From assembly GCA_026770705.1 (NCBI GenBank), contig JANJGN010000006.1:39246001-39310000 (forward strand): a stretch of DNA of 64,000 bases, written 5' to 3'. Positions within the stretch are counted from its first letter, which is position 1, and every line of letters begins with the position of its first letter. Shown here in pieces: positions 46,061-50,664 of the stretch. The stretch is from Isurus oxyrinchus. Lineage: Eukaryota. Position numbers and translations under genes: made by a program. The notes under the pieces were generated by a model. The model saw only the letters and a program-made list of their open reading frames with translations. It made no database searches and was not told the DNA's origin.

Positions 46061-46574
46061 AAAACAACACGTGTACTAAATAACTTACAGTTTGTATTCT
46101 GTAGAGCAACTAATTGGTACTTTGGGTCTGAAATTTGTTTTGTACTGTTTTTTGGGTAGGGTATGGTTGGTGGCTAAATAAACACAGCAGAGGCATGACT
46201 GAAATTGGACCTCAGACCTCATCAGATAATTCCAATGGACTGCATATGTCAGCTGGATATCTAGAGGCAGCTGTTAACTCCAATAATTTTATATAAGGGA
46301 AGAATGAATCTGAAGCTGGTCTTTTACCTCGAGCAAGTTTATTCTCCAGCCAGCTCAACAAAATGACAAGCTCCTAATTCCTTGCCCCAATGAAGTGTTA
46401 CAGCTGTGCCTATTTATTGGTGAGCCAATGCCCATCACCTGTTTTAACAATGCAATTATCTTAATGTATTTACCATACAATGTAATTGCCAGTCAACAAG
46501 ATGATTGTTACTGGACCTTGACAATGTAATTGCTGATACATTAACAACTCACAAGTTTGAAGGACAAATTTTTT

Positions 46575-48234
46575 GCTTGGCCTAAATAGCCAAGTGGTTA
46601 TGGTACTGGGTTTGTAACCCCAAGATCAAGAGTTCAAGTCTCGCAATGGCAAACTATGAAACAATGTGACTTCATCTGAAACAGATGGAAATGGGTTTGT
46701 GCTCGAAAGAGTATCAAGAGTTCAAATCTCACAATGGCAAAACTATCAAGAGTTCAAATCTCACAATGGCAAACTATGAAACAATATAACTTCATCTGAA
46801 ACAGATGGAAATGGGTTTGTACTCGAAAGAGTTACAACCTTCATCTTTAGCTTGGCCTAAATAGCCAAGTGGTTATGGTACTGGGTTTGTAACCCCAAGA
46901 TCAAGAGTTCAAATCTCACAGTGGCAAACCATGAAACAATGTAATTTCATCTGAAACAGATGGAAACTGGTTTGTACTCGAAAGAGTTACTGTCAATTCA
47001 GGATTCTTTGCTTGGCCTAAATAGCCAAGTGGTTATGGTACTGGGTTTGTAACCCCAAGATCGAGAGTTCAGATCTCACAATGGCAAAACTATGAAACAA
47101 TGTAACTTCATCTGAAACAGATGGAAACGGATTTGTACTCAAAAGAGTATCAAGAGTTCAAATCTCACAATGGCAAACTATGCAACAATGTAACTTCATC
47201 TGAAACAGATGGAAACAGGTTTGTACTCGAAAGAGTTACACTCCCTGTGCCTGCACTCATACCTTAGCTTGGCCTAAATAGCCAAGTGGTTACGGTACTG
47301 GGTTTGTAACCCCAAGATCAAGAGTTCAAATCTCACAATGGCAAACTATGAAACAATGTAACTGCATCTGAAACAGATGGAAACGGGTTTGTACTCGAAA
47401 GAGTTACACTGGTATTTTTGTGCCTATCTTGGCCGAGCGGTCTAAGATGCTGTGTTAAAAGAGCCATTTCGTTGGGGGCGTGGGCTCAAATCCCACAGTT
47501 CCAATGAGCTGCTGTTCGCGACGTATCACTAAATCGTTAGACGGGGAAGCTTCGGATGAAGTGTGCCGTGTTATATTTTGGGCTTGGCCTAAATAGCCAA
47601 GTGGTTACGGTACTGGGTTTGTAACCCCAAGATCGAGAGTTCAACTCTCGCAATGGCAAACTATGAAACAATGTAACTTCATCTGAAACAGATGGAAACG
47701 GGTTTGTGCTCGAAAGAGTATCAAGAGTTCAAATCTCACAATGGCAAAAACTATGAAACAATGTAACTTCATCTGAGACAGATGGAAACGGGTTTGTGCT
47801 CGAAAGAGTATCAAGAGTTCAAATCTCACAATGGCAAACTATGAAACAATGTAACTTCATCTGAAACAGATGGAAACGGGTTTGTGCTCGAAAGAGTATC
47901 AAGAGTTCAAATCTCACAATGGCTAACTATGAAACAATGTAACTTCATCTGAATAGGAACAGATGGAAACGTGTTTGTACTCGAAAGAGTTACATTTGAG
48001 CTTGGCCTAAATAGCCAAGTGGTTATGGTACTGGGTTTGTAACCCCAAGATCAAGAGTTCAAATCTCACAATGGTAGACTATGAAACTATGTAACTTCAT
48101 CTGAAACAGATGGAAACGGGTTTGTACTCAAAAGAGTTACATCTAAAAAAAAATAATCAAGAGTTCAAATCTCACAATGGCAAACAATGTAACTTCATCT
48201 GAAATAGATGGAAACGGGTTTGTGCTCGAAAGAG
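46575..48234 (+). mobile_element. Head-to-tail array of a 142-nt tRNA-headed SINE-like unit with unique spacers; single retro-insertion with a 15-bp TSD
   Basis: Full units start at 46575, 46850, 47010, 47267, 47582 and 48000 (gcttggcctaaatagccaagtgg...). A-box TAGCCAAGTGG, B-box GAGTTCAAATC, anticodon-like loop TTTGTAA. TSD ttgaaggacaaattt at 46557-46571 and 48235-48249. Confidence 0.85.
47420..47579 (+). pseudogene. tRNA-Leu-like head plus ~75-nt trailer ending in TTTT, embedded in the array
   Basis: tggccgagcggtctaag ... gggggcgtgggctcaaatcccac matches the D-arm, long variable arm and T-arm of vertebrate tRNA-Leu; acceptor and anticodon stems do not pair. Confidence 0.75.
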
Positions 48235-49269
48235 TTGAAGGACAAATTTCAACTGGCAGCAGCACTGAGGTATGTTCTGGTGAAGGGGGCGTGGGCTAAT
48301 ATGAGCTGTCAGTGGCACATTTGTCAGTGACTGTCGTGCACCCAGGAAGACCACTCCTATTTCCCCTCTGCTCAGCATCAAGGTAAGTTTAAAAGAAAAT
48401 ACTATTTTGGTTGTGTCTTCCAGCTGTCCCATTAAGGACCACTGCTTAGGCTACTGAAAACCCTAAACCCTGAGGAGACCGTCCTCCGTCCTATCAAATA
48501 TCTGACAGAAGTCCTAAAACAGGCGTATCTGGTTGCTCATTAACATATGCCTGTTTTGGGGTGGCCACCCTGAATGCTGGTATATCACCCATCCCAGTGT
48601 GGCACAAACATATTTCAGGAGCCCTTGAGTATGAGAGATGGCATTGGAAGATTGAAGCTTTTTGCTTCCATTTTATGTCCAATGAATAGGCATAGCAGAA
48701 TCCATTCACCCCCATTCCATTTTTTATCCATCATTTTTTGTGGTTCATTAGTAAGGTACAGAAAGCAAACCTGTGATGCAGCCTTCTGTATTTCCCTTTG
48801 TGCATCTTTTAATTCCTAATCATGTACTTTGCAAGCATGTTAAAGAAATCACTAAAACTAATGCAGAGAGGAAAATAATGGCGGATACATGTATATATTA
48901 AAATATCACACTTGTCAGGGAATTTGCCATAAGGTTGTAACATTTTATGTCTTTAATGCAATATGCCATGCTGTACTGCCTTGAAATATTAACATAGAAC
49001 ACTTAATAAATTTGCCCAAAATCTTTATCTCCACCGGTTTATAGGAAGTTTTCACTTCTTTAAAACAAGTGGGTTAAAGTCTTCAGTAAGGTAGTGAAGG
49101 GAGATTTTTTTTAGGTGAACATGTTCAAGTGTTCAGACATTAATATCCCAGAATGCAGTTTCAGGACCTTTATGTTAAAAAGAAACAACACAAAATCATG
49201 CTGCCAATATTTGGTTAATGGAACAAATAATTAGTGGTCATGTGTTCCCTTTATTGCTTGTTGTTACAG

Positions 49270-49520
49270 CAAAGCGATTTTGCAAGAACTCCAGTTCAGC
49301 CAGCAGCACGACGAGTAGCTATGCTCCCAGCAGTAGCAGCAGCAGTATCAGCTGTGGTGGAGGCAGCAGTGCCAGCAGCACCTCGAGCAAGAGCAGCTTC
49401 GACTACACGCATGACATGGAGGCAGCACACATGGCAGCCACGGCAATTCTGAATTTGTCCACCAGGTGCCGCGAGATGCCTCAGAACCTCTCGACCAAGC
49501 CTCAGGATCTGTGTGCTAGG
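49270..49520 (+). CDS. MYT1L: Myelin transcription factor 1-like, next coding exon (phase 1 start, phase 0 end)
   Basis: Encodes (A)[83 protein letters not shown]; acceptor ttgttacag and donor AGG|gtaagt; phase-compatible with the exon ending at 15285 (G+CA = Ala). Confidence 0.95.
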
Positions 49521-50664
49521 GTAAGTGACATCCCTTTCAAAGGTCCTTTCCCAGATTAGTTGACAGTCTATGGCTCCACCATCCATGCAAATATGTGTGT
49601 ACACGTATACAGGCCTAAGCACAAAGCAAACCCAAATAACACTGATCAATATAAAATGGCTTCATTGAAGAGAAGGGCAAGCTGTGTGCCTTGGTATGAA
49701 TATTGAATCTGACCCCGCGTTCTGTTAATCTGGAATCTTAACAGGTTTTTCAACAAAGCTTTTATATGGATAAGAATAGATGAATACAGTTTTAATTTGT
49801 CCTTTTTTGGATAATTCCAAGTTAGGATATCCATTTTATATTTTTGCTTATCAGTATGAGGGATACTAGTACTGGGAATCTAAGGGTGCAACTGTGCTAC
49901 CATTTTTGCATTGCAGATGTTTAGAATGGGGTCCCGACTTCACCATGCTATCTTCTGCCACATGGCATTGAGTAAAACTATATTATGGTGTAAAGTTCAG
50001 TTTAAAAAATGTTCAGAACTCTTGTGTACTTTATAAACTTAAGCATCCTCAACACCTTTAAAACTTACATGACAGGAAATGAAACTCTGCATGTACTAAT
50101 AAACAGAGAGCCTCTCCTAATGCAACATTCGGATTTGCATCCAGGCAATGTAAATAATGTAGCACTAGCTACCTACAGCCCTAACAGTTTTCCATTTCTG
50201 TCATCAGAGCCAGCATTAAGCTCTCTGAAATGCTTTAACCCCAGCCTCAAGAAGGACTCCTATTACACCAGTGTGAATTTTTCCATTTCTTACCCAAACC
50301 ATTTTTAAGACCTCCCTGACAGCTAATTTGTGCAATGGACTCACACCCATTAGGTGCTGTGTTGAGAGTGAACTAAGTAATTTTTCACTGGATCCTTATT
50401 AAAGCAGAAGACTTTTATTCTATCAGTTCTAAGAGAGATTGGGCATCTGCACTGACTAACCAGTCTGTCTGAAACCCTATTTTGAAATAATCCTTCACTC
50501 GCATTCCTGCACTTAATTACTTTAAATAAGCTTTTTCCTTTCATTTCTTCAAATTCCATTATCTAAGAAATGTGTTTCGTGCTTCTCTTTCAGTGGCATT
50601 AAAATTGAAGATTGAGGCATAGTTGATTATAAGAAAAAATAAGCTGAAATAAAAAGCACAGCTC

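Follow-up and report, generated by a model that had tools for sequence, protein, structure and literature searches.

A SINE chain in Isurus oxyrinchus that probably arose as one insertion assembled from several RNAs

In 3' transduction by L1 and SVA elements, offspring insertions carry the 3' flank of their source copy along, and this flank reveals the source. Which SINE copies are true sources, and how many of them there are, is as a rule deduced from diagnostic mutations, since the flank is seldom transported with a SINE. Indeed, a survey of Alu elements reports no confirmed transduction among 118,489 AluY copies (bioRxiv 10.1101/2024.04.29.591526). Composite insertions of another type are the template-switch chimeras of Magnaporthe grisea, which are attributed to LINE reverse transcription and consist of two or three parts, with 33 bipartite cases and 1 tripartite case (PMC2104539). 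In the mammalian U6/L1 chimeras ascribed to RtcB, an oligo-U Pol III RNA is joined to a downstream retroelement RNA with precise joints (PMC6789731). Tandem arrangements of SINEs have been described for the crocodilian SINEU-3 family, which is moved by Tx1, shows a target preference and often forms tandems with a target site duplication (TSD) between the copies (PMC4494074), and for squamate SINE-derived satellites, in which parts of SINEs form satellite-like tandem arrays (PMC10702118).

The locus compared here lies in a stretch of 64,000 nucleotides of Isurus oxyrinchus DNA, which is referred to as the window. Its positions 46575-48235 form a mosaic chain of about 1.7 kb that comprises six SINE copies and one tRNA-like piece. 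Altogether, the chain holds six heads of 50 nt. Its inner domains number thirteen and measure about 88 nt, except for a stub of 32 nt, and a single pair of 15-nt TSDs (TTGAAGGACAAATTT) encloses it as a whole. The parts of the chain and its borders are the following.

46557..46571, + strand: left outer TSD copy, 15 nt; unlike the right copy, it has three additional T behind it (46572-46574)
46575..46832, + strand: SINE RNA copy 7, with tRNA-like head, inner domain, 32-nt stub and inner domain; presumably the last made
46833..46849, + strand: spacer 1, ending in TCTTT plus A; four siblings, none of them a donor
46850..46987, + strand: SINE monomer, with head of 50 nt and inner domain of 88 nt
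46988..47009, + strand: spacer 2, the TSD of locus L037 and 8 nt of its 3' flank
47010..47236, + strand: SINE head and two inner domains
47237..47266, + strand: spacer 3, the TSD of locus L033/L162 and about 17 nt of its 3' flank
47267..47404, + strand: SINE monomer, inner domain like the last unit of locus L066; Rfam tRNA match of 20.8 bits, E 0.077
47405..47419, + strand: spacer 4, TSD of L066 up to TATTT, plus two T
47420..47581, + strand: captured tRNA-Leu-like precursor plus GG, from locus L042
47582..47990, + strand: SINE head and four inner domains; Rfam tRNA match of 27.7 bits, E 0.00096
47991..47999, + strand: spacer 6, TACATTT plus GA; 17 matches, too short for tracing
48000..48137, + strand: SINE monomer with TAGACT variant
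48138..48155, + strand: spacer 7, A-rich, the start of the trailer of locus L161
48156..48235, + strand: terminal inner domain, without trailer at the target joint; presumably the first made
48235..48249, + strand: right outer TSD copy

Like the template-switch chimeras of Magnaporthe grisea and mammalian U6/L1, the array consists of parts from different transcripts that are fused in the sense orientation within one TSD pair. However, it differs from what is described for Magnaporthe grisea in having about seven parts, mostly from one SINE, each copy with its own donor trailer. It shares with the RtcB chimeras the joining of an oligo-U Pol III RNA to a downstream retroelement RNA, but its joints show variable numbers of T, extra bases and full-length acceptors. 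As in L1 and SVA transduction, the 3' flank of the source copy is present in the offspring; in contrast, the trailers are short, often end in a T-run and are found mainly on internal units, and none of the window spacers ends in the new poly(A) that marks L1 and SVA transduction. Compared with the reported Alu result, carriage of the flank is common in the present SINE. The tandems described for SINEU-3 match other arrays of this SINE family, in which a locus uses its own TSD as spacer, whereas all spacers in the window are foreign. Likewise, the array is tandem in the way of the squamate satellites as reported, but its spacers are unique, traceable and located inside one TSD. Searches of the open literature returned no description of multi-donor SINE chains. 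The array combines the template-switch chimera with 3' transduction, in a new and extreme form. We infer, with a probability of roughly three in four, that it is one retrotransposon insertion made from about seven RNAs through serial template jumping by the reverse transcriptase of a Tx1-type LINE.

The repeat unit is a young tRNA-derived SINE. It has the tRNA-derived head, interspersed distribution and high copy number of SINE2 elements: the genome (G000, 4.98 Gb) contains 17,470 exact 23-nt heads, the best 40 unit matches are 97-100% identical, and the best matches are spread over many contigs. Against Rfam RF00005, with its gathering score of 29, the two scored window heads fall below the threshold (27.7 and 20.8 bits), whereas sister units reach 30-34 bits. 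No tRNA was called in the window by ARAGORN at default settings or by Rfam at the gathering score, and the tRNA calls given here rest on relaxed settings. The variable TSD length typical of SINE2 was also observed, as a script called 56 TSDs of 11-16 nt. Since 48 of these start with TAC, the TAC(A) that an earlier note on this DNA had counted as the end of the unit is largely target sequence. A preferred target starting TACATCTTCTT lies inside another repeat and accounts for 7 of the 56 TSDs (L004, L026, L108, L114, L127, L140, L154, L171). Truncated units preceding a head break off at reference positions 78-82, near the GTTT of the unit, in 11 of 38 rows, a raw count that carries no weight in the reading given here. 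A reading of the array as CRISPR-like or as a satellite was ruled out by the thousands of dispersed, TSD-flanked copies and by the lack of a homogeneous repeat.

The integrity of part of the chain is supported by DNA run X1, which may derive from the same sample as the assembly. One of its contigs covers 47388-47601 at a depth of 40.5 compared to 33.7 and 36.9 in the flanks. It runs from the end of a unit through spacer 4 and the tRNA-like piece into the head that follows, and these junctions are therefore not an assembly artefact. The array is located upstream of a MYT1-family exon on the same strand (49270-49521; Pfam PF08474, E 1.9e-24) and is likely to be intronic. In organism B, contig 32 of run X9 gives a hint, and no more, of an empty site: 37 of its letters are unmatched, and its match then sets in at 48235, where the right TSD starts.

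The earlier note had proposed that the sequences between the units record the 3' flanks of different donor loci. The spacers that it quoted are present (46837-46849, 46991-47009, 47241-47266, 47409-47419, 47995-47999 and 48142-48155), and the proposal is borne out by the searches of the assembly. Five of the seven inserts were traced to five donor loci on four contigs (C1, C11, C9 twice and C26), namely L037, L033/L162, L066 and L161 and, for the tRNA-like piece, the SINE-free locus L042. Spacers 2, 3 and 4 represent the TSD, or the TSD and flank, of donor copies on C1, C11 and C9, in agreement with the earlier suggestion that a spacer might be the donor's own TSD. Furthermore, the sources L037, L162 and L161 retain the respective flank outside their own TSD, as is the case in 3' transduction.

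Spacer 2 has four matches, with the terminal donor L037 at G000:C1:225.08 Mb, and its offspring end at TTCTTT in 3 of 3 cases. For spacer 3, with six matches and the terminal donor L033/L162 (G000:C11:107.9 Mb; TSD TACACT(T/C)CCTGTG), the offspring ends vary, lying at about +29, +29, +41 and +67 and near the T4 at +75. The window spacer 3 ends with CCTT, 45 nt before the first T4 of the donor, and its final A can be templated by the donor. Spacer 4 has two matches, and the donor L066 (G000:C9:34.86 Mb) has this spacer as its own TSD. L066 shows TATTT only, to which the window adds two T, and the first T4 of the donor follows about 88 nt further on. 

Donor-specific unit variants were found to travel with the spacers. 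The inner domain of the unit at 47267..47404 matches that of the last unit of L066 over 88 nt, and both share a rare GTAACTGCATC variant that is present in 6 of 623 other units. In the same way, copy 7 carries a AACAATATAAC variant that occurs in 4 of 4 spacer-1 siblings and in 13 of 620 other units, and the TAGACT variant was observed in 20 of 30 units with spacer 7 and in none of 594 others. The units preceding spacers 2 and 3 differ from the last units of the respective donors at about 5-6 positions and no significant variant is shared between them (p 0.06 and 0.24), so their immediate sources may be other copies. Spacer 1 occurs in five copies including the window, all of which are internal and end at CATCTT(T). 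The searches of this assembly for its donor gave internal copies only, and this donor may be missing from the assembly. Among the matches of spacer 6, several candidate terminal loci were found, none of which could be assigned.

Spacer 7, with 41 matches, stems from the trailer of L161 (G000:C9:136.6 Mb), the second donor on C9, which has a T6 located 28 nt beyond the spacer. Where trailers of this type pass an ATCA point, they end in the T6 with 3-4 T (4 of 4 loci), while the window spacer is cut at an ATCA microhomology into an inner domain, and so are 23 of the 29 copies that were scored. Of these 29, 15 share the A-rich type of junction, and the A-rich junction in the window is likely to be an inherited internal junction. 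In the copies with spacer 7 (L067-L096, L161), the unit variants form nested sets, and these could represent successive states of one long-lived source lineage.

If this kind of inheritance applied to the entire chain or most of it, an older array would have been copied whole by Pol III read-through, and the joints would not reflect the RNA pool of one cell. In favour of this view, the loci L007 and L019 have private variants and a unit-spacer-head junction in common, and the common ATCA cut of spacer 7 points in the same direction. However, a read-through transcript would have to pass the T5 at 47415 and the T4 at 47576, no second locus with two of spacers 1-4 turned up among those examined (spacers 1 and 7 occur together at L164 alone), and sibling spacers differ in their junction bases. 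Copying of the chain from an older array is therefore very unlikely. The inheritance of single junctions by read-through (L007 to L019; the A-rich type) does imply that a spacer marks a donor lineage. The idea that each spacer derives from an active source copy thus holds as far as the lineage is concerned, but not always for the locus active in that cell, and the RNA that was used may derive from a later copy than the traced donor. Co-transcription of the donors in one cell, which the earlier note had also envisaged, holds only if the array arose in a single event.

The ends of the spacers were compared with those in other arrays. Set A comprises the 52 loci with the first 100 exact heads on C1 (first 18 Mb), set B the best unit matches, and set C the loci found via the window spacers. 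Spacers were classified by a script as own-TSD, foreign or unknown, a heuristic by which a few rows may have been wrongly assigned. The 18 unknown rows, spacers serving as search anchors and unit-like rows were left out of the counts, and T≥3 was scored within the last 3 nt of the spacer. In sets A and B, 18 of 45 foreign spacers had a T≥3 end, against a flank-position background of 8.9%, compared to 1 of 25 own-TSD spacers (p=0.0015) and 3 of 36 outer 5' junctions (p=0.0018). With set C included, the values were 28/65, 2/33 and 4/53, respectively. The predicted enrichment of T-runs at spacer ends is thus seen across arrays. In addition, internal TTTT was found in 3 of 71 foreign spacers, where 9.1 were expected. 

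The T-runs do not account for all ends. In sets A and B, 27 of the 45 foreign spacers (60%) lack a T≥3 end, and T2 ends fail to separate foreign spacers (13/45) from outer junctions (11/36); spacer 3 of the window ends with TT. The prediction that a T4+ run directly follows the spacer at the donor failed for all three terminal SINE spacers (TTCTTT, TATTT, CCTT) and is true only for the tRNA-like piece and the full-length L161 trailers. Two of these three end at T2VT3 or TVT3 motifs (TTCTTT, TATTT), types that are described as weak, sub-optimal terminators of human Pol III (PMC3141230). Taken together, the spacers without T≥3 and the lack of T4 at the donors of terminal SINE spacers show that Pol III termination would explain only a part of the ends. 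Extra T without a terminator are found in two places, three at the 5' junction of the window and two in spacer 4. Another proposal, a preference for inserting beside T-runs, was rejected, since outer TSD ends are not T-rich (T≥3 in 4/53, background 8.9%).

Two or more heads are present at 23 of the 52 loci of set A, with foreign spacers at 15, own-TSD spacers at 14 and both types at 8. The own TSD is repeated as a spacer, for example, at L105, L119, L123, L127, L133, L139, L141, L158 and L171, which could be due to insertion that recurred at a regenerated site or to re-priming in the course of one event. Such loci, and the terminal units with 3' transduction that exist at L034 and L036, raise the possibility that independent insertions, each with 3' transduction, were stacked at one preferred site over time. 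Sequential insertion that sandwiches a TSD was proposed for the Tx1-mobilised SINEU-3 family (PMC4494074). However, every event of this kind should leave its own TSD, while the window shows one TSD pair, no spacer occurs twice within the chain and none of its seven inserts is an own-TSD spacer. This renders a stepwise origin most improbable.

The earlier note offered no mechanism of joining. On the reading that the chain was made in one insertion, Pol III would begin at the tRNA-like head of a donor SINE and continue along the unit, which has no T4, into the flanking DNA. It would stop at a full or weak T-run, and some RNAs would be cut shorter. The lack of TTTT in the unit, as claimed before, follows from the T4+ runs within 46541-48270, which are located at 46569, 47415 and 47576 only. 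The LINE endonuclease would then nick the target, and the first RNA would be primed at the unit's own end, starting at 48235, so that terminal units would usually have no trailer. [quoted passage not shown] Six such jumps, from right to left, would be followed by a final jump onto the target that closes the TSD. As the insertion is inherited, it would have arisen in the germ line or early embryo. For human ORF2p, concatemers that arise in vitro through template jumping and the addition of non-templated bases have been described (PMC10830420).

The view that the joints were newly made is supported by the junction bases, which differ among siblings of one spacer (TTTA, TTTG, TTAA and TTTAAAAC for spacer 1; TTT and TTTA for spacer 2), indicating that these joints were made independently. 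Together with the single TSD pair and the absence of a repeated spacer, this argues for one event. Of 29 foreign spacers with a T≥3 end, 23 have extra bases behind the T-run, some of which are possibly templated. The extra bases are G/A-rich at internal joints as well as at outer 5' junctions, which is expected if one enzyme step precedes both types of jump. Some of these bases could stem from variation in where Pol III starts.

The joints also bear on the idea that the RNAs were ligated end to end by an RtcB-type activity before one round of reverse transcription. Such ligation would give the same product, in which a Pol III RNA with T at its end is followed in sense by the next piece, among others a 5'-truncated LINE (L082), and it has a precedent in the U6/L1 chimeras. 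RtcB requires a 5'-OH together with a 2',3'-cyclic phosphate, and joining was blocked by a 5'-triphosphate (PMC6789731). The acceptors in the array are full-length heads, the number of T ranges from 2 to 5, and the joints are not precise, as the 23 of 29 spacers with extra bases show. Moreover, extra G/A bases appear at the internal joints as they do at the outer DNA junctions. End-to-end ligation is therefore very improbable.

A candidate for the enzyme that would perform the template jumps is provided by pieces of a Tx1 LINE, which are found in sense orientation inside sister arrays. The C-terminal 455 aa show 41% identity over 98% of their length to ORF2 of the Xenopus Tx1 149 kDa protein (E 2.8e-102), and by this best hit the ORF2 of the LINE piece appears closest to Tx1. 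A shark protein model contains a piece that is 82% identical to the LINE. The LINE piece gave a weak zf-RVT match, and the ESM Atlas returned zf-RVT clusters only, below the recognition threshold. One variant of the LINE ends with ACTC(G/A)AAAGAGT|TAC like the SINE at three loci, and at a fourth with one mismatch. The similarity between the SINE and LINE tails is limited to about 12 nt and to this variant (4 loci). At most of the Tx1 LINE 3' ends, the inner domain of the SINE follows directly (L015, L040, L080, L082, L144, L145, L147, L154, L164). It is as if a source copy of the LINE had inserted in a SINE and now used the SINE 3' end as its tail, and the same insertion site of the LINE may explain the direct repeats of inner domains. 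Inserts of an unrelated repeat, which may be the 3' end of a Penelope-like element, are also present in SINE arrays at L061 (oriented 1183-1337) and L155 (2067-2827).

The captured tRNA-like piece, which ends with ATATTTTGG, consists of a leader piece, a tRNA-like body and a trailer of about 75 nt up to the first TTTT. Its best other match is L042 (G000:C26:25.83 Mb), with 97% identity; the piece starts in the leader of this locus and stops at its first TTTT, and no SINE is located within 1.5 kb of L042. The region of C26 from 22 to 39 Mb (L042-L058) contains dispersed cassettes of a tRNA-Leu-like pseudogene and a downstream tRNA (mostly Ser-CGA), among which only L042 matches the captured piece at 97%. 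Near full-length copies of 5S rRNA-like and tRNA-like sequences (Ser, Asp, Met, Lys and others), all sense, were also observed inside SINE arrays. Eight independent captures at seven loci were found, those of tRNAs with genomic trailers.

Capture loci other than the window: L165:3659-3767; L177:1547-1619; L158; L139:3290-3361; L117:1128-1199; L078

At L117 (oriented 1788-1991), the spacer before a tRNA-Met-like capture consists of the own TSD and about 20 nt of the own downstream flank, which suggests either that the locus was transcribed and its copy re-inserted at the same site, or that DNA was copied locally.

For the window array, copying at the DNA level would involve repair synthesis that switched between homologous SINE copies. 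The 17,470 near-identical heads would offer homology for this process, and tandem duplications of array blocks (L158) and microhomology joints are seen. However, homology cannot import a SINE-free tRNA-like locus that is cut at its terminator, all eight tRNA and 5S captures are in sense orientation, and the spacer ends are T-enriched. DNA-level copying is for these reasons highly improbable.

The chain of the window would thus give in vivo evidence of a LINE enzyme that jumped six times in one insertion, and such chains would record the ends of germ-line Pol III transcripts, weak terminators included. The carried flank serves as a barcode at 15 of 52 loci. Should the first 18 Mb of C1 be representative, this amounts to roughly 2,600 of about 9,000 loci in the genome. 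With this barcode, the question of a master gene versus many sources becomes directly countable. Whether serial template jumping is routine for this SINE, with thousands of inherited insertions each sampling, in order, the Pol III RNA pool of a single germ-line cell, is in our judgement an even bet. If it is, this pool of active SINE source loci, tRNA precursors and 5S RNA, together with the full source-to-offspring genealogy and the groups of co-active loci, would be readable from the genome.
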